Shown piece after piece: positions 1-6,984 of a DNA stretch of 6,984 bases. Origin of the DNA: a virus (taxonomy: Duplodnaviria > Heunggongvirae > Uroviricota > Caudoviricetes); IMG/VR virus record IMGVR_UViG_2663763286_000013, positions 1 to 6,984 of that record; one strand, 5' to 3'. Under the pieces are notes generated by a model, which was not told the DNA's origin, ran no database searches, and worked only from the letters and a program-made list of their open reading frames with translations. Position numbers and translations under genes: made by a program. Each line of letters starts with the position of its first letter. Positions within the stretch are counted from its first letter, which is position 1.

Positions 1-63
1 AAGAACCGTTCTGACAGCTTCGGCTTTGAACTCTTTAGAGTAACGTTGGGTTTTTCTGCTCAT
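1..63 (-). CDS. IS3-family transposase OrfA, N-terminal fragment (gene continues beyond window start)
   Basis: Reverse complement of 1-63 translates MSRKTQRYSKEFKAEAVRTVL, a typical IS3-family OrfA helix-turn-helix N-terminus. ATG is the complement of 61-63. An AAGGAG Shine-Dalgarno (complement of 70-75) lies 6 nt upstream. Not in the ORF track because it runs off the window. Confidence 0.8.
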   Translation of the reverse strand, partial: MSRKTQRYSKEFKAEAVRTVL

Positions 64-127
64 TATTAGCTCCTTCTGATGCCATTCTATTTCAGGAAGG
101 AGTGTCCGTTAAACTCAGGCTACCTCA
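1..127 (-). mobile_element. Left-hand IS3-family insertion sequence, terminal part (IR and orfA leader); outer end near 127
   Basis: Read on the minus strand from 127, the sequence starts TGAGGTAGCCTGAGTTTAACGGACAC, i.e. the 5'-TG terminus typical of IS3-family ends, about 64 nt upstream of the orfA ATG. The exact boundary is inferred, not proven. Confidence 0.55.
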
Positions 128-372
128 CTCTGGTATCTCGCGGTCGCGTAACGGCCCTAGAGGCGAATGCACAGGGAACATCCGGGATTCAGCTGTATGA
201 GGCATACAACAATGGCTACCCTTCCACCTATGGCAATGTGCTTCACCTTAAAGGTGCCACCGCTGCTGGCGAAGGTGAGTTATTCATTGGCTGGAGTGGC
301 ACGAGCGGTGACCATGCGCCCGTACATATCCGTTCGCGGCGTGATACTGATTCTGCCAACTGGTCTGAATGG
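128..372 (+). pseudogene. Upstream (N-proximal) fragment of the tail-fibre gene, cut by the IS and out of frame with the downstream part
   Basis: Frame 1 is open from 70 and encodes protein-like sequence (…[53 protein letters not shown]) up to about 372, then becomes low-complexity. Frame 0 is closed by TGA at 309-311 and 366-368 and only becomes tail-fibre-like from 369. Its upstream end abuts the IS terminus. Confidence 0.4.
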
Positions 373-1418
373 CGCAGGTCTATACGTCAAAAGATTCAAT
401 TCCCGGCGTCAATGCCAAAGGGGATCAGGACACCTCTGGTAATGCGGCTACAGCGACCAAGTTGCAGACAGCATGTACTATCAATGGCGTCTCGTTTGAT
501 GGTTCTACTGATATCACTTTAACCGCTGCGCATGTTGCTGCTTTTGCCAGAAGAGCAACGGATACGTATGCCGATGCGGATGGTGGCGTTCCCTGGAATG
601 CCGAATCAGGCGCTTACAATGTCACCCGCTCTGGCGACAGCTATATTCTGGTTAACTTCTATACCGGAGTCGGAAGTTGCCAGACCTTGCAGATGAAGGC
701 GCATTACAGAAATGGTGGTCTGTTCTACCGTTCTTCAAGAGACGGTTATGGTTTTGAGGAAGACTGGGCAGAAGTTTATACCTCGAAAAATCTTCCACAA
801 GAAAGCTACCCAGTCGGCGCACCAATCCCGTGGCCATCAGATACCGTTCCGTCTGGTTATGCCCTGATGCAGGGGCAGACTTTTGACAAATCTGCCTACC
901 CGAAACTTGCAGCCGCTTATCCGTCAGGCGTGATCCCTGATATGCGTGGCTGGACGATTAAGGGCAAGCCCGCCAGCGGTCGAGCCGTATTGTCTCAGGA
1001 ACAGGACGGCATTAAATCGCACACCCACAGCGCCAGTGCATCCAGTACGGATTTGGGGACGAAAACCACATCGTCGTTTGATTACGGTACTAAAACGACC
1101 AGTTCATTTGATTACGGCACAAAAACCACGAATAGCGCTGGAAATCATTCACACAATATACCTGTTGGTCACACTGGCGCGGGGAATGGTGTATCAGCCG
1201 GTTATAACGCTGCGTTAGGTACTGGTACCACGTCGAGCGCAGGCGGGCATGCTCACAATGTATATATCGGTGCCCATAACCACACTATCGGCATTGGTGC
1301 TCATGCCCATTCTGTCATTATTGGTCCCCACGGACACACCATCACCGTTAACGCTACGGGTAACGAAGAAAACACCGTAAAAAACATCGCATTTAACTAT
1401 ATTGTGAGGCTTGCATAA
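369..1418 (+). CDS. Phage tail fibre protein, C-terminal (distal, receptor-binding) part; probably a fragment of a disrupted longer gene
   Basis: 349-aa ORF with tail-fibre hallmarks: [12 protein letters not shown]…[15 protein letters not shown], a Gly/Thr/Ser-rich region, His-x-His repeats ([33 protein letters not shown]) and the C-terminus [11 protein letters not shown]. Its stop overlaps the start of the next gene (TAATG at 1416-1420). Confidence 0.8.
1056..1130 (+). repeat. Imperfect 30-bp tandem repeat (about 2.5 copies) inside the tail-fibre gene, encoding [10 protein letters not shown] repeats
   Basis: Codons 1056-1085 and 1086-1115 both encode [10 protein letters not shown]; 1116-1130 encodes GTKTT. 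Read directly from the sequence. Confidence 0.8.
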
Positions 1419-1996
1419 TGACATTCAGAATGAGTGAACAATCACGGACCATAAAAATTTATAATCTACTGGCCGGAACCAATGAGTTTATTGGTAAAGG
1501 TGATGCATACATTCCACCTCATACAGGTCTGCCTGCAAACAGTACCGATATTGCCCCGCCAGATATTCCGGCTGGCTTCGTGGCCGTTTTCAACAGTGAT
1601 GAGGCATCGTGGAATCTCGTTGAAGACCATCGGGGAAAAACCGTCTATGACGTGGCTTCCGGCGACGCGTTATTTATTTCTGAACTTGGCCCATTACCGG
1701 AAAATGTCACCTGGTTATCCCCGGAAGGGGAGTTTCAGAAGTGGAACGGCACAGCCTGGGTGAAAGATGCAGAAGCAGAAAAACTGTTCCGGATCCGGAA
1801 GGCGGAAGAAACAAAAAACAGCCTGATGCAGATGGCCAGTGAGCATATTGCGCCACTTCAGGATGCCGTAGATTTGGATATTGCGACGGAGGAAGAGGCA
1901 TCGTTACTGACTGCATGGAAGACATATCGGGTATTGTTGAATCGTGTTGATACAGCAGTAGCAGCGGATGTTGAGTGGCCAGTCGCCCCGCAATAA
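1418..1996 (+). CDS. Tail fibre assembly protein (Tfa, chaperone, lambda Tfa / Mu U family)
   Basis: 192-aa ORF translationally coupled to the tail fibre (ATG overlaps its TAA), with GAGG about 9 nt upstream. The C-terminal domain …[50 protein letters not shown] is the conserved Tfa C-terminal motif. Confidence 0.9.
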
Positions 1997-2039
1997 AAAG
2001 ATAAAGCCATCGATAGAAATATTGATGGCTTTATGTACT
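1997..2039. terminator. Bidirectional intrinsic terminator between the convergent tfa and acetyltransferase genes
   Basis: Perfect 9-bp stem aaagccatc (2003-2011) / gatggcttt (2024-2032) with a 12-nt loop. On the minus strand the hairpin is followed by AUCUUUUUAUU; on the plus strand by a weaker U-rich stretch. Confidence 0.55.
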
Positions 2040-2612
2040 CTATTTATACAATACAACACCGCTCTTTTTAGTAATATATGTGCAGTTCGATGGTATATCT
2101 TTATTTATAAAAGACATTGCACCTATTTTTACATTATCCCCAATTTTACGTGATAATCCAATGATGCAACAATTAGCTCCGATATCAACGTTGCTACCAA
2201 TTTTTACTCTTGAACCAGGTATGTCACCATCTATCTGTCCAATGGTCGTATTCTGTCGTAACACCAGATTTTCACCAGCATCAACAGCAAAATGAACAAC
2301 AATTCCAGCATGATGGGGAATTGTTAACCCTTTTCCAATATTTGCGCCCAATCCAATTTCACAACCAAATTTGTTAATTATTTTACTGTTTAACTTTTTG
2401 GCTGCTTTCTTATGTAATTTATTACCATTAATATGCATTTCATTAGCCAATCTCCACCAGAAAAGGAAATTCCGATTGCGCTGCCTCTTCTCTCTTAATA
2501 GTCGCCAAACATCCATTTTTTCACGCCTGATGACTTCAGCCATCCAATAGCTCAATAGAGCTTTTGAATTCCCAAAGATGACAAAGTGAATAGCTATTAA
2601 GTAACATAACAT
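2040..2612 (-). CDS. Hexapeptide-repeat (left-handed beta-helix) O-acetyltransferase, serine acetyltransferase (CysE)/WcaB-like; start codon uncertain
   Basis: 190-aa ORF containing …GCEIGLGANIGKGLTIPHHAGIVVHFAVDAGENLVLRQNTTIGQ… followed by further [LIV]-G-x-x-x-x hexapeptide repeats. AT-rich codon usage unlike the flanking phage genes. Both candidate starts (2612 and the internal ATG at 2543) have weak SD sequences. Confidence 0.7.
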   Translation of the reverse strand: MLCYLIAIHFVIFGNSKALLSYWMAEVIRREKMDVWRLLREKRQRNRNFLFWWRLANEMHINGNKLHKKAAKKLNSKIINKFGCEIGLGANIGKGLTIPHHAGIVVHFAVDAGENLVLRQNTTIGQIDGDIPGSRVKIGSNVDIGANCCIIGLSRKIGDNVKIGAMSFINKDIPSNCTYITKKSGVVLYK

Positions 2613-3100
2613 ATTGCAACTGCCTATATTTTTGGTTTCTATGGTTATATATCGACATTATAATTAAAACAATAAGCATCAGTGTGTTACTGCGTTCCTG
2701 CTAAACTAAACCAACGCACAATGTAAACACAAATATTAATTTTAAACTGAGCACTAAAGGGATGTCAATATTGTATTGATAATAAGTTGCAAGATTGCCA
2801 CTACTTTCTGTATTTTGGGATGCAATAATTTATATTTTATCTATTCAGTGTTTCTTTGGGCTTATTAAGGATGTCATTATTAATTTATGGCTTGCCATTT
2901 CTATACATATCTGTTAAAAATTTTGATTTGTCTATTGAAAATAGATTTAATTGATTGATTTAATTTTTACATGACGCTCTTTAATATAACTTCAGGTATA
3001 TTAAAGCACATGCATTATATCCAGAGAAAATTAACAAAATTGTTAGCCCTTATTTGTTGGGATTATAGATATTAATTAAGGCCCGATCCCGGGCCTTTCC
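2613..3100. other. AT-rich non-coding spacer; presumably holds the acetyltransferase promoter
   Basis: No ORF of 60 aa or more on either strand. Very AT-rich with short direct repeats (e.g. gatttaatt twice around 2945-2970). Function not determinable from sequence alone. Confidence 0.3.
3078..3097. terminator. GC-rich hairpin just downstream of the minus-strand tfa-relic stop codon; possible terminator remnant
   Basis: aaggcccg (3078-3085) / cgggcctt (3090-3097) form an 8-bp stem with a 4-nt loop. No clean U-tract on either strand, so confidence is low. Confidence 0.3.
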
Positions 3101-3337
3101 TCATTCCGGCTTTTCGGGAAACGTTACTGGAAGGATGGAGGTATCCGTGGATTCGACTTTCTGCGCATAGAGAATCCACTCGGTTAATTTTTGTTTACCC
3201 TGAACGGAAATAATGCCTAGCCGTAACTGTGAGTCCCAGAGCTGAGTTTTATCCCTGACGAGTTGTAGCAGGCTTTGCTTTTCTTTTTCCGCTTGTTGTC
3301 TTTGCATGACCGGTTGAGAAGTTACTTTGCATACCAT
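3101..3337 (-). pseudogene. Relic of a second tail fibre assembly gene (C-terminal domain only; U-prime-like), opposite in orientation to the intact tfa
   Basis: The minus-strand ORF ends …MQRQQAEKEKQSLLQLVRDKTQLWDSQLRLGIISVQGKQKLTEWILYAQKVESTDTSILPVTFPEKPE, which aligns with the C-terminal domain of the plus-strand Tfa (K-SL-Q…L-D…W-Y…V-T…WP-P pattern). The upstream part of the track ORF 3101-3598 is antisense to the holin-like gene and is not credible coding. Confidence 0.6.
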
Positions 3338-3365
3338 TACCTCCTGACAACGTAGGAGGGAACTT

Positions 3366-3695
3366 GTGCTTGACACACAGGAATTAGCTCCAGTTGCTAT
3401 TGCGCTCCTGCTTTCAGTAATTGGTGGGATAGGCACGTTCCTGATGGATGTCCGAGACGGTCGCCAGTCTGGCAATTTGTTGGGATTGGTTACGGAGATC
3501 TTTGTTGCAGTGACAGCTGGCGCGGTGGCGTACCTATTGGGGCAACACGAGGGCTGGGAGTTATCAATTACGTACTTAATGGTAACGATAGCCAGCAATA
3601 ACGGTCATGAGGTGATTTCAGGGATGAAACGAGTGAATATCGATAGCATTCTGAATGTTCTTACAAGTTTGGTGAAAAAGGGAGGCGGGAAATGA
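3366..3695 (+). CDS. lydA: Holin-like small membrane protein (3 predicted TM segments, charged C-terminus); candidate LydA-type holin
   Basis: GTG start preceded by AGGAGG (3354-3359) with a 6-nt spacer. Hydrophobic stretches LAPVAIALLLSVIGGIGTFLM, LLGLVTEIFVAVTAGAVAYLL and LSITYLMVTIA, then a basic tail …LVKKGGGK. First gene of a coupled five-gene operon. The gene symbol is by inferred homology to the P1 darA operon, not by a search. Confidence 0.6.
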   Translation: MLDTQELAPVAIALLLSVIGGIGTFLMDVRDGRQSGNLLGLVTEIFVAVTAGAVAYLLGQHEGWELSITYLMVTIASNNGHEVISGMKRVNIDSILNVLTSLVKKGGGK

Positions 3696-4135
3696 TTGGC
3701 TGGGGTGTATGCGTTCTTGCGTTAGCCTTAGCCGATCGCTATTTGCTAAAACGCAAGGACATCACGCATTTAGAACTTGGTGATGTGGAAATTAAACCGG
3801 GTTTCATCCGGGTGCCGTTCAAATACCGGTCTAAATTCCCGTTTTTGCGCGGCGCAACGGTCAGATATTGGATCCGCGATGTTCAGAAGCCAACGACAGT
3901 GATTGAAGGCGAACAACGTTGTCTGACGTCGGCTGAACAGGGCGAAAACAGTGAATGGTTGTACATACCCACTGAATATATGGGTAAAGGAGAACGGCTG
4001 TGGCATTTCAACGTCATGGTTACGCATGGCGACTCGTTCATTAACCCGTTGTATCGGATTTTCCCTGTTACTCAGCAAATCCGCAGAAGTTACGTAATAA
4101 ATCTCGCACAGGATGTGTCAGATGACGAAAAATAA
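3692..4135 (+). CDS. lydB: Membrane-anchored protein, candidate LydB-type antiholin
   Basis: ATG overlaps the upstream stop (ATGA at 3692-3695), with GGAGG at 3681-3685. N-terminal hydrophobic segment MIGWGVCVLALALA, then a soluble domain. Named by position and size in the inferred darA-type operon. Confidence 0.5.
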   Translation: MIGWGVCVLALALADRYLLKRKDITHLELGDVEIKPGFIRVPFKYRSKFPFLRGATVRYWIRDVQKPTTVIEGEQRCLTSAEQGENSEWLYIPTEYMGKGERLWHFNVMVTHGDSFINPLYRIFPVTQQIRRSYVINLAQDVSDDEK

Positions 4136-4724
4136 GTATGCAACGGTCGATTTTGACCAGGTTAATGAAAAGGGGCTGAAATCCCTTATCGCGGCGATCA
4201 ATAAAACCGGTGTTACGGTAATTGAGGTTGACTCCAGCAACCGCGCAACAACGAAAGATGGCGTTAAAGTTAAAACCGCAAAGCTGGTTCTTAACGACGG
4301 ACAAATTCTTGCCATACAGGTAAACGATACTGGCGATATATCGTCTGTGAGGCTGAATGGAAAAGCTATTCCTAACGCTCAATCGCCGGATATCAAGACG
4401 CTTGGTACCGTCATGGGGCAGGCGGCCCGCAAAAACTCCGCAAAATTCCAGAAATCACTGATCGCCAAAGCGAAACGTGTTGCCAATCCGGTAGACAAGA
4501 AACCGGCAGTAAAATCCAACTTTCAGCGCCTGCAAGAGGCAAAACAGCGGAATGCTCAGGTGGTTGCCGCTTATAAATCAGCGCAGAACTCGGTGTCTTT
4601 CAATCAACAGCAGATCACTGATTTGCGGGCGAAGCTGGATAAGGAGACAGGCCGACTCAATAACGAAAAGGCCCGAAATGGCGAACTCAAACGCCGTCTT
4701 AAGCAACTGAAAGCAGGAAATTAA
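4122..4724 (+). CDS. hdf: Hdf-like protein (homologue of a fragment of the downstream large protein) with a C-terminal coiled coil
   Basis: Probable start at the ATG at 4122 (AGGA at 4109-4112); the track ORF starts at 4113. Shares a conserved block with the next gene (…DGQ-I-I…TLG/AQV-M…KNSAKFQ followed by a Lys-rich coiled coil). The KNSAKFQ-coding 21-mer at 4430-4450 matches 5329-5349 at 19/21 nt. Confidence 0.55.
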   Translation: MTKNKYATVDFDQVNEKGLKSLIAAINKTGVTVIEVDSSNRATTKDGVKVKTAKLVLNDGQILAIQVNDTGDISSVRLNGKAIPNAQSPDIKTLGTVMGQAARKNSAKFQKSLIAKAKRVANPVDKKPAVKSNFQRLQEAKQRNAQVVAAYKSAQNSVSFNQQQITDLRAKLDKETGRLNNEKARNGELKRRLKQLKAGN

Positions 4725-4725
4725 C

Positions 4726-6645
4726 ATGGAACAGTTCAATATCAATAAAGGGGTGACGATCAAGCCTGGGCTTGACGTGCTTCCCCCGCCAGTGACTGAT
4801 GATGAATATCGCGCATTAATGGCCGGTGAGGACCGCTATCTGATGACGGAATCCAACACCCTGGAGGAAATCGAGGCTACGTTCTTCTATGACACGCCGA
4901 TCCACTGGTGTGCTACGGATTTACTGGAGGCGATTAGTTCTACTCGTTTGCAGTTACACCGGACCATGCAGGCATTTGTCCGGGCATTGAACCAGAAGCT
5001 GAATGGTACCGGAATCTCTGCGGGGAGTGATAAAACGGGGGATGTGGCCCAGAGCGGCGCGCGCGCGATCGGCGGAGCTGAAATTGGTCGGGCACGTAAC
5101 GTTAACGGGCTGTCGGTCCTGCCAGCCATTATTCCGCTCAGTGATGGTCAGACTATCAGCATTTTGTTTCATAGCCCGACAGCGGAAAACCGGATCACCA
5201 ATAGCGATACGCTGGTTGCTTTCCAGTTCTTACTGAATAAAAAAGACGTTACTCACACCGTTGCTCCGATGAGTGGACGTGATATGACGCTGGCGCAGGT
5301 CACCATGAAACTTGCCAACCTTGCAGAGAAAAACTCGGCAAAATTTCAGCGTGCGCAGAAGAAGAAAAAAGCCCTTGTTGATGAAATAACCCAACTACAG
5401 GCTGACAGTGACCAGAAAGAGGATGCCATGAGCGACCTCGTGGATCAGGTGGCAGCGGTAGAAGGGCAGAAGGTAGATCTGGAGCAGAAAATTAACGCTG
5501 TTGCATCGGAAGCGGATTCTCTTTATGAAGAGAATGAGCGTTTGCAGACGGAGATTGATCAGCTCAATCGAACTGGTGGGCGCGAAACCATTGCTCCTGC
5601 GGGGATGACTGGTGGACACTCTCGCGCGATGACGGATCGCCTTGCAAGTATCAAAAATCGTATGCATATGAACGGGGAAGTGACGCTCAGTAATGGTGCA
5701 TCAATGAAGCAATTCATTGAGGACGGTGAAGGGTATATCCAGTTAACCGATTCGGATGGCAGCGTGTACATGATCAAGGCTAAATCCATACAGGGTGTGG
5801 ACATGGCAGATGCGATCGGCAAGCTGTTTAAAGCCTATAAAGCGGGTAATGTATCGGAATACCTAGTCCAACCAGAAGAACATAAACCGGAAAACGTCGA
5901 ACCTGAACCAGCGGAGGATACCGGTAGCTCTTCGCCTGAACCAGAAGTCTCTGTAGGTGCATATCGATATGCCCTGCAAATGCGTCCGGCGGCCCCTGGC
6001 GCAATACCTGAAGGTAACAAAGCAATTCTGCCGCGCCCTGATGAAGGTGACCCGTATTATGAATATGCACGCTACGGCATTGCTACTTACGATACCCCGC
6101 TTTCTGATCAGCAAATGAGTGAGTACGACCTGAAGTTATTGCCTCGCGAGGATTCTTTCGACTTCCTGGCGAAGACACTTACTAATGGTCCGTTTGGCAA
6201 ATATGCACAAAAAGCTCTGGAGCTGGCCACCAGCTCACCAGACGAGTTCCGCGTAATGCTGAAAACTCAGTTTCAAAAAACTTTCCCCAATATTGCGTAT
6301 CCGGGGGGCGCTGGCACCGAGAAAATGGTGCAGAGCATGATCAATGCATTGCAGGCCGAAGTCGGTGAGATTACTCAGCCAGAACCTGCCCCGGCACAGC
6401 CTGATGAAACGGTTAGCGAAGCAGATGCAGAGGCTAATAAAGCCATTGAATATCTCAATAACGTGATGGATATGCAAAGCACTGACATGGCGGAGATCCG
6501 TAACGCCCGGGGTAATGTCCGGGAAGCGATTGCAGCCCTTCAGGCTGCCGGGCGTTTTGAGGAAAACGAAGAGCTGGTTAATGGCGCTGCTCGCCACCTG
6601 GCTGATCTGCTGGTAGCAATCCAGAAAGCGGGGGTAGCGGCATGA
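4726..6645 (+). CDS. darA: Large DarA-like protein (639 aa): candidate capsid-packaged antirestriction protein
   Basis: ATG at 4726 with AGGA 7 nt upstream, immediately after the upstream stop. Has a central coiled coil (…ALVDEITQLQADSDQKEDAMSDLVDQVAAVEGQKVDLEQKINAVASEADSLYEENERLQTEIDQL…) and acidic Pro/Glu-rich linkers. Its N-proximal region is paralogous to the preceding gene. Assignment to DarA is an inference from operon architecture and size. Confidence 0.55.
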   Translation: MEQFNINKGVTIKPGLDVLPPPVTDDEYRALMAGEDRYLMTESNTLEEIEATFFYDTPIHWCATDLLEAISSTRLQLHRTMQAFVRALNQKLNGTGISAGSDKTGDVAQSGARAIGGAEIGRARNVNGLSVLPAIIPLSDGQTISILFHSPTAENRITNSDTLVAFQFLLNKKDVTHTVAPMSGRDMTLAQVTMKLANLAEKNSAKFQRAQKKKKALVDEITQLQADSDQKEDAMSDLVDQVAAVEGQKVDLEQKINAVASEADSLYEENERLQTEIDQLNRTGGRETIAPAGMTGGHSRAMTDRLASIKNRMHMNGEVTLSNGASMKQFIEDGEGYIQLTDSDGSVYMIKAKSIQGVDMADAIGKLFKAYKAGNVSEYLVQPEEHKPENVEPEPAEDTGSSSPEPEVSVGAYRYALQMRPAAPGAIPEGNKAILPRPDEGDPYYEYARYGIATYDTPLSDQQMSEYDLKLLPREDSFDFLAKTLTNGPFGKYAQKALELATSSPDEFRVMLKTQFQKTFPNIAYPGGAGTEKMVQSMINALQAEVGEITQPEPAPAQPDETVSEADAEANKAIEYLNNVMDMQSTDMAEIRNARGNVREAIAALQAAGRFEENEELVNGAARHLADLLVAIQKAGVAA

Positions 6646-6782
6646 CACTATCAGCTATTGAGTTAATGGATCTCAGCGATAAGTTGGATGCTCTGATGTC
6701 CAAAGCGGCTACCGCGAGTGGCATGGAGTTGCTGGATATCAGCGATGAAATTGACCAGATCATGCAACAGATGGGGTACTGA
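6642..6782 (+). CDS. Small ORF (46 aa) coupled to the DarA-like gene; possibly a 3'-truncated ddrA-like gene whose stop codon is supplied by the IS end
   Basis: ATG at 6642 overlaps the upstream TGA (ATGA). Encodes MTLSAIELMDLSDKLDALMSKAATASGMELLDISDEIDQIMQQMGY, with an internal 14-aa duplication. Its stop TGA (6780-6782) is the first three bases of the IS inverted repeat TGAACCGCC. Below the ORF-track length cutoff. Confidence 0.5.
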   Translation: MTLSAIELMDLSDKLDALMSKAATASGMELLDISDEIDQIMQQMGY

Positions 6783-6867
6783 ACCGCCCCGGGTTTCCTG
6801 GAGAGTATTTTATCTGTGAACTCTGAACCGCCCCGGGTTTCCTGGAGAGTATTTTATCTGTGAACTC
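6780..6867. repeat. Perfect 44-bp tandem duplication of the IS terminal inverted repeat
   Basis: 6780-6823 and 6824-6867 are both tgaaccgccccgggtttcctggagagtattttatctgtgaactc. The repeat starts with the IS3-group terminal motif TGAACCGCCCCGGG. Confidence 0.9.
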
Positions 6868-6984
6868 AGGCTGCCAGATCATTATTTCCGATGGAAGCAT
6901 AATAAGCTTTTTCTGCTTCTGCCGGAGGAATATGGCCCAGCCTTTCCAGCAATCGTCGATTGTTATACCAGTCCACCCACGTTA
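6824..6984 (-). mobile_element. Right-hand IS3-family insertion sequence (IS629/IS3411-like end), right inverted repeat plus orfB 3' end; continues beyond the window
   Basis: Terminal sequence TGAACCGCCCCGGGTTTCCTGGAGAG is an IS3-group-type inverted repeat, immediately followed by the stop of a minus-strand transposase orfB. Confidence 0.75.
6866..6984 (-). CDS. IS3-family transposase OrfB, C-terminal fragment (gene start beyond window end)
   Basis: Reverse complement of 6866-6984 translates …TWVDWYNNRRLLERLGHIPPAEAEKAYYASIGNNDLAA then stop (complement of tca at 6866-6868). This is the conserved C-terminal tail of IS3-family integrase-type transposases. Confidence 0.8.
   Translation of the reverse strand, partial: TWVDWYNNRRLLERLGHIPPAEAEKAYYASIGNNDLAA

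Follow-up and report, generated by a model that had tools for sequence, protein, structure and literature searches.

A 78-codon reading frame beside lydA in a P1-like phage-plasmid contig as the very probable scar of a deletion in the C segment

The DNA analysed here, referred to as the window (6984 bp), makes up the whole of one draft-assembly contig (JXWD01000094.1, GCA_000948825.1). Positions 127-6779 are P1-like (Punavirus) phage-plasmid DNA, with 99.4% identity to phage vB_EcoM-Ro157c2YLVW, on which a literature search found no paper, and 99.7% to plasmids of E. coli O157:H7 strains. The gene order, as read off the annotation of close relatives, was the 3' part of the tail-fibre gene S, tfa, an acetyltransferase gene (minus strand), an open reading frame (ORF) of 78 codons (minus strand), lydA, lydB, hdf, darA, and a cut ddrA. 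The S gene (127-1418, plus strand) is cut at 127/128 by the left end of an IS600 (1-128, minus strand), whose sequence occurs with 100% identity at sites bearing the annotation IS3-like element IS600 family transposase, and the gene is one nucleotide short in a G run at about 368-369. Its stretch 127-514 (plus strand) matches both S and S' of the cin-positive P1-like phage-plasmid JL22 (ON018986), and is the surviving part of one arm of the approximately 0.6-kb inverted repeat of the C segment. Next come an intact tail-fibre assembly gene in the tfa/U position (1418-1996, plus strand; 192 aa), with DNA about 90% identical to phage lambda tfa, and a gene for a hexapeptide-repeat acetyltransferase (2040-2612, minus strand; 190 aa), which is annotated as a serine acetyltransferase.

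The 78-aa ORF occupies 3101-3337 of the minus strand, stop codon included, and is of composite origin. The last 67 codons and the stop (3101-3304) are the relic proper of the second chaperone gene, U', corresponding to U' residues 111-177. A deletion junction lies at 3304/3305, where about 2.9 kb of the JL22 sequence is absent, and the first 11 codons (3305-3337, MVCKVTSQPVM) are the opposite strand of the lydC-lydA spacer. That spacer carries the P1 late promoter LPdar on the plus strand (3319-3337), a 19/19 match to the feature in P1 (NC_005856), and an AGGAGG lies on the minus strand at 3340-3345, 2 nt before the in-frame ATG. The holin gene lydA (3366-3695, plus strand; GTG start; LydA-type, PF16083) opens the lydA-lydB-hdf-darA-ddrA operon, in which darA spans 4726-6645, and which runs to 6779, where the end of an IS629/IS1203-type element (6780-6984, minus strand) cuts ddrA after codon 46.

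The ORF product matched Pfam family PF02413 (Caudo_TAP) with an E value of 4.1e-18 and 66.2 bits (gathering cut-off 22.1), spanning only the C-terminal part of the profile (positions 55-131 of 131), and the plus-strand Tfa (1418-1996) matched the entire profile (E = 3.5e-42). A search of the relic against NCBIfam returned no family. The first-pass annotation, which had described a minus-strand remnant encoding only the C-terminal domain of a tail fibre assembly protein, about 1.1 kb downstream of the intact tfa and abutting the upstream region of a holin-like gene, was correct on all three counts: the interval is 1,104 bp, and the complement of the ATG (3335-3337) lies close to the lydA GTG at 3366. 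It had not seen the acetyltransferase gene between tfa and the relic, the loss of lydC, or that the first 11 codons of the ORF are not U'. When ORF residues 12-78 were aligned with U' residues 111-177, 62 of the 67 were identical to JL22 and 59 to P1, and the relic was far less similar to P1 U and to the Tfa of the window itself. By profile and alignment, U' residues 1-110 are absent, so that the full two-domain Tfa architecture is lacking. Nor does the relic lie directly downstream of a cognate fibre gene, Sv' being deleted and the upstream DNA on the minus strand being antisense to lydA.

At the nucleotide level, 29 of the 204 positions of the relic are not shared with JL22 U', and most of these differences are synonymous. 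Identity to JL22 is about 98-100% across the adjacent 1.1 kb (2000-3099); from the U' stop codon onwards, within the relic, it is about 82-90%. The dN/dS values were 0.04 against JL22 U' and 0.09 against P1 U', similar to the 0.03 found between intact alleles, which means that the divergence is allelic and was gained while the gene was whole, with no post-deletion decay. The allele in question carries VQGKQKLTEWILYAQ. In PLSDB, no full-length U' allele exceeded 88% DNA identity with the relic, the best full-length U or U' reaching at most 87.7%. An intact progenitor was sought within the 90% protein cluster of the relic but not found there, as every longer member sampled was the same locus, called with an extension into lydA antisense. 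The frame of the relic runs for 165 codons without a stop, on into the DNA antisense to lydA (3101-3598, minus strand), which accounts for proteins of 133-161 aa listed in databases as 'tail fiber assembly protein, partial', these being mostly lydA antisense. An apparent tblastn extension of U' homology to 3562 was likewise discarded; it added no score, the 132 bits coming from the 67 conserved residues alone, and reflects the same frame antisense to lydA.

Just beyond the U' stop codon, a GC-rich hairpin (AAGGCCCG..CGGGCCTT, 3078-3097) is possibly a terminator. Its minimum free energy of -16.6 kcal/mol (51-nt context) and z score of -1.4 are weak evidence; the region containing it (3050-3099) is identical to JL22 at 49 of 50 positions and is common to cin-positive relatives.

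The layout from which the locus would derive is seen intact in JL22, where the genes run R, S, tfa, acetyltransferase (minus strand), U' (minus strand, 177 aa), S' (minus strand), cin (minus strand), lydC (plus strand), and lydA (plus strand). The segment is bounded by inverted repeats of 602 nt with 99% complementarity, having 26-bp cix sites (TTATCCAATACCTTGGTTTAAGAGAA and CAATCCTAAACCTTGGTTTAAGAGAA) at their outer ends. The C segment of P1, with its S/U and S'/U' sets and the sites cixL and cixR, and its invertase Cin are of the same kind as the Mu G segment and Gin, the P segment of e14 and Pin, and Min of p15B. The P1 genome (NC_005856) follows the same logic as JL22, without the acetyltransferase gene. 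Window positions 807-3283 aligned to 8408-10884 of the JL22 locus (L002) at 97.9% identity, and 3306-6779 aligned to 13783-17256 at 98.7%. The U' reading frame stays in register, with scattered substitutions, up to 3304, and the right-hand homology in cin-positive relatives begins at 3305 or 3306. The absent sequence, about 2.9 kb (from about 10885/10906 to 13782 of L002), comprises codons 1-110 of U', Sv', cin together with the cix site nearer to it, and lydC. On the right, the deletion stops 7 bp beyond the place of the lydC stop codon. The P1 record (NC_005856) calls LydC a holin on grounds of homology, its identity to LydA being 30%.

Searches of the window agreed with this. With tblastn, JL22 Cin gave only noise (E = 0.28) and no resolvase or invertase sequence, S' matched only the part that it shares with S, leaving no Sv'-specific sequence, and LydC matched only its paralogue lydA, with no lydC sequence. 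A scan with both JL22 cix sequences, allowing up to 9 mismatches in 26, found no site in the window; the S-side cix is expected about 80 bp before window position 1, outside the contig. Phage vB_EcoM-Ro157c2YLVW keeps an orphan cix in S (6518-6543 of L001, NC_050153). This orphan site shows one substitution beside the core dinucleotide, CCTTGATTT as against CCTTGGTTT in JL22. In place of two opposed fibre-chaperone sets, the window holds one complete set (Sv-tfa) and a 67-codon stub of the second chaperone gene. Descent from an invertible segment of the Cin/Gin/Pin/Hin type is borne out by the collinearity with JL22 on both sides of the gap and by the partial repeat arm at 127-514. What the first-pass annotation proposed thus held in its main parts: the arrangement is the inner part of an invertible segment (JL22 and P1 carry the full S-U / U'-S'-cin layout), the alternative fibre gene and the Cin-type invertase are missing, mapping of endpoints against P1-family relatives gave the result it predicted, with collinearity to 3283-3304 and again from 3305/3306, and the search for a serine recombinase and a 26-bp crossover site yielded neither in the window. 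The gap also agrees with its proposal that a deletion fixed the module in one orientation; having lost cin and the cix site nearer to it, the segment is unable to invert, which would leave the lambda-Stf/Tfa-like set in the orientation that is expressed.

The 78-aa ORF is therefore very probably the scar of a deletion of about 2.9 kb in a P1-like C segment rather than an independent gene. The ancestor would have been a Punavirus with the order Sc | cix – Sv – tfa – acetyltransferase moron – U' – Sv' – cix | cin – lydC – LPdar – lydA, and one illegitimate deletion, or an equivalent recombination, would have fused U' codon 111 to the DNA lying 7 bp beyond the end of lydC. With the alleles available, the junction shows neither a repeat nor clear microhomology, and its left breakpoint is placed only approximately, the progenitor allele being unsampled at full length. 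That the junction is an assembly artefact was rejected because it occurs in 49 complete genomes.

Whether the invertase itself could have made the deletion, by acting at quasi-cix sites in direct orientation, was also considered. Cin of P1 reportedly recombines at such sites, according to work of Iida and Arber, and a weak half-site likeness (CCTCTTAAGC versus TCTCTTAAAC) is present a few bp from the right end in both JL22 and P1. However, a scan of JL22 at up to 9 mismatches in 26 returned the two true cix sites only, neither endpoint qualifies, the half-site likeness is offset from the junction by 6-7 bp, and the left endpoint shows nothing comparable. This origin was judged to be so improbable as to be practically negligible.

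An unlikely, though better founded, reading is that the junction arose by modular recombination among P1-like plasmids, with a recurrent boundary upstream of LPdar, and that the U' fragment arrived together with the acetyltransferase cassette. The drop in identity to JL22 at the edge of the relic fits such a mosaic history, since it indicates a different U' allele, and the stretch lydC-cin-Sv'-U'-U-S has been described as a hypervariable region (PMC9603915). Plasmid pCTX_B2_4 presents another layout without cin and lydC: at 3538-4501 of its sequence (L013, NZ_CP075059), S-tfa-acetyltransferase is followed by about 950 bp of unrelated DNA, without U', cin, or lydC. Its backbone homology resumes at the lydC stop codon, 7-8 bp from the junction, which suggests a recurrent recombination point just upstream of LPdar and counts against a simple deletion to the extent that the right end may be a recurrent module boundary. 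Against this, the junction cuts U' in the middle of a domain, unlike any functional module boundary, and a single junction is common to all carriers. Modular recombination would, moreover, give the same end state, a truncated U' without cin, cix, or lydC.

The DNA inserted between tfa and the relic (1997-3100, 1.1 kb) stands out by a GC content of 0.32, compared with 0.49-0.51 in its flanks. The best NCBIfam matches of the acetyltransferase were EpsC, CysE, and WcaB, all far below their cut-offs, and no function is assigned to it in PMC9603915. The gene has a sigma-70-like promoter of its own at 2768-2739 (11/12), predicted to be strong. In cin-positive relatives, this moron sits inside the invertible segment, in its middle, and would flip with it. 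In a sister contig (L007, 2684-2760), 576 bp corresponding to window 2437-3012 have been lost, comprising the 5' part of the acetyltransferase gene and the DNA upstream of it.

The expression signals around the ORF start bear on whether it could be a gene. LPdar, with its -22 box (AAGTTACTT) at 3319-3327 and its -10 box (TACCAT) at 3332-3337, is intact, lies 14 bp from the junction, and keeps the P1 spacing to the lydA start. The ATG of the ORF (3337-3335), 28 bp from the lydA GTG at 3366, is the reverse complement of part of the -10 box. The minus strand leading into the ORF reads cAGGAGGtaATGgtATGcaaagtaac..., where the AGGAGG precedes the in-frame ATG by 2 nt; the ATG at a good spacing, 7 nt from it, is out of frame and begins a frame of 27 codons. 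Judged by sequence, the start codon and the Shine-Dalgarno motif arise by accident, as the complementary strand of the LPdar -10 box and the lydA leader. A scan of the minus strand from 3338 to 3800 revealed no sigma-70-like promoter. The nearly palindromic -22 box of LPdar was considered as a promoter for the relic and dismissed, as the minus-strand hexamer in the -10 position, GGTCAT (3/6), falls downstream of the ATG. The P1 record (NC_005856) has no promoter feature between cixL and U', and places LPs upstream of R, as would be expected if transcription of U' comes from the S operon and requires inversion. The relic is most likely silent.

These observations, taken together, weigh on the idea that the ORF is a maintained mini-gene, encoding a Tfa C-terminal trimerisation domain that modulates the fibres of resident or superinfecting phages through mixed trimers. 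In its favour, all carriers examined keep the frame open, at least 1000 contigs encode the exact sequence, it is annotated as a protein both by PGAP and in the phage record, and AGGAGG lies just upstream. An open frame and a widespread protein are also what selection for a small protein would produce, and to that extent they count against a scar, but the low divergence of the carriers explains them equally well. Across all 20 PLSDB carriers, the relic is at least 99% identical over its 204 bp, with at most one nucleotide difference; the variants seen were rare amino-acid changes only, and carriers this similar say nothing about post-deletion selection. The start codon and Shine-Dalgarno motif are the reverse complement of elements conserved for the expression of lydA, with a spacing of 2 nt; no promoter was found, and U' in intact phages is without its own promoter, going by the P1 annotation. 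The fibre-binding N-terminal domain is also absent. In TFA proteins, the variable N-terminal domain binds the fibre while the conserved C-terminal helices trimerise, as stated in PMC9608196 with reference to the Mu TFA structure, and a product of the relic, if made, would most likely not be a chaperone, having only the C-terminal helices. A maintained mini-gene is, on balance, highly unlikely, and so, to the same degree, is its specific form, in which the stub would be translated from M1, or from M11 created by the junction, as a free trimerisation domain that co-assembles with full-length Tfa or U as a decoy, altering fibre assembly of resident or superinfecting P1- or Mu-type phages, with selection keeping the frame open. 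The suggestion in the first-pass annotation that the ORF could still express the Tfa domain on its own is accordingly weak, with a spacing of 2 nt, the well-spaced ATG out of frame, no promoter, and no N-terminal domain.

If the ORF is a deletion scar, the consequences for the phage can be sketched. Without an invertase, and with one cix left, the segment would be locked and only a fibre tip of the lambda-Stf/Tfa type made. The lysis and anti-restriction operon (lydA-lydB-hdf-darA) would still be driven by LPdar and expressed late, which would explain why the deletion was tolerated and spread in a P1-like plasmid lineage, and the cost to the phage would be limited to the switch and lydC. The presence of the deletion in an isolate deposited as a phage, vB_EcoM-Ro157c2YLVW, suggests compatibility with virion production.

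Of 464 complete E. coli genomes with any match to a 90-bp junction query, 49 carried the junction, as did 20 of 471 PLSDB plasmids, carriage being defined as at least 80% coverage of that query. The carriers listed included O157:H7, O111:H8, O111:H-, O26, and O103:H2, from cattle, beef, and patients, and the listed examples were mostly STEC. The first-pass annotation had reasoned that related phages naturally carrying this arrangement without an invertible segment would speak against a degenerate switch. Taken literally, relatives do carry it, with an identical junction in those complete genomes, but this is no refutation, because the truncated U' and the orphan cix in S of vB_EcoM-Ro157c2YLVW mark the arrangement as derived. 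It appears that a widespread P1-like lineage (O157:H7, O111, O26, O103) lost switching by one shared deletion, and it should be limited to one receptor specificity of the lambda-Stf type. The exact 78-aa protein, on its contigs, is named 'tail fiber assembly protein' (WP_000227029.1), and the gene is called U' in the record of vB_EcoM-Ro157c2YLVW (NC_050153 / MH160767). The entry WP_000227029.1 (78 aa) would then be a gene fragment, with the scar explaining why it recurs in databases. Loss of the switch bears on predictions of host range and transduction for P1-like phage-plasmids, and the scar is usable as a marker of a host-range-locked P1-like plasmid lineage, although it has little importance beyond annotation. 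It is a well-sampled and already annotated remnant of a known system, and loss of the switch has already been published (PMC6906374, PMC9603915).

Further damage is present in this particular contig. The IS600 cut at 127/128 lies 207 bp inside the inverted-repeat arm, and S is one G short (GGG to GG, about 368-369), a -1 frameshift relative to vB_EcoM-Ro157c2YLVW and p08_4347-1, so that the fibre module is non-functional here whatever the state of the switch. The IS600 in S, the frameshift, and the IS629-type element in ddrA would all be events later than the deletion. The two IS ends may be either simple insertions or the edges of a stranded fragment of 6.65 kb. The same G-run deletion was observed in contigs L006 and L007, the latter also having an IS629-type end inserted in the IS600 end. 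The terminal 44 bp of the IS629/IS1203-type element (TGAACCGCCCCGGGTTTCCTGGAGAGTATTTTATCTGTGAACTC) occurs twice in tandem in the window (6780-6823 and 6824-6867) and once in the otherwise identical L006; the second copy could be a real duplication or an assembler artefact. Contigs L008, L009, L011, and L012, which come from other samples, also end exactly after ddrA codon 46, with cin intact in L009 and L011, indicating that this IS insertion or assembly-breaking repeat occurs on backbones with different C-segment states.

Degenerate C segments are not confined to this type. In surveys of P1-like plasmids, cin and the C segment were found truncated or missing (PMC6906374), and in the present data a JL22-type cin was at least 80% present in only 219 of 464 matching PLSDB plasmids. 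In some PLSDB plasmids, sampled down the ranking, the match to cin was confined to its 5' 177-212 nt, with an identity of 86-89%, at a place for which the records annotate no gene, and contig L008 carries a 140-nt cin stub beside lydC (1272-1411). Plasmids of this sort, having the first 140-212 nt of cin beside lydC and being without U' or Sv', represent a different and apparently commoner decay of the switch.

Compared with known systems, the window resembles the C segment of P1 in its backbone and in having R-S-U with an inverted U', after which Sv'-cix-cin-lydC-LPdar-lydA follows in relatives; LPdar is identical. It differs in being without cin, one cix, Sv', lydC, and two thirds of U', which makes it a fixed remnant and not a switch, in a fibre tip and chaperone that are like lambda Stf and Tfa rather than P1 Sv and U, and in the 1.1-kb AT-rich acetyltransferase insert between U and U'. 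The closest relatives, vB_EcoM-Ro157c2YLVW and P1-like plasmids of E. coli O157:H7, O111, O26, and O103 such as NZ_CP038378 and NC_013370, are 99.4-99.8% identical over 127-6779 and have the identical junction and 78-aa ORF, but their ddrA is complete and so is their S, which contains an orphan cix and encodes 949 aa in the phage, whereas in the window both genes are cut by IS elements and S is frameshifted. JL22 shares the left part (S-tfa-acetyltransferase-U') and the right part (lydA-darA) with the window, but retains the full U', S', cin, lydC, both cix sites, and the 602-nt inverted repeats. Plasmids pSvP1, pTZ20_1P, and pJIE250-3 are likewise switch-less, with cin truncated or lost or the complete C segment lost, and are presumed not to switch fibres (Venturini et al. 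2019, PMC6906374). The breakpoints and mechanisms in such other switch-less plasmids are different, however, several being IS-mediated, and among the layouts compared in detail, a C-terminal stub of U' abutting LPdar is found in the window type only.
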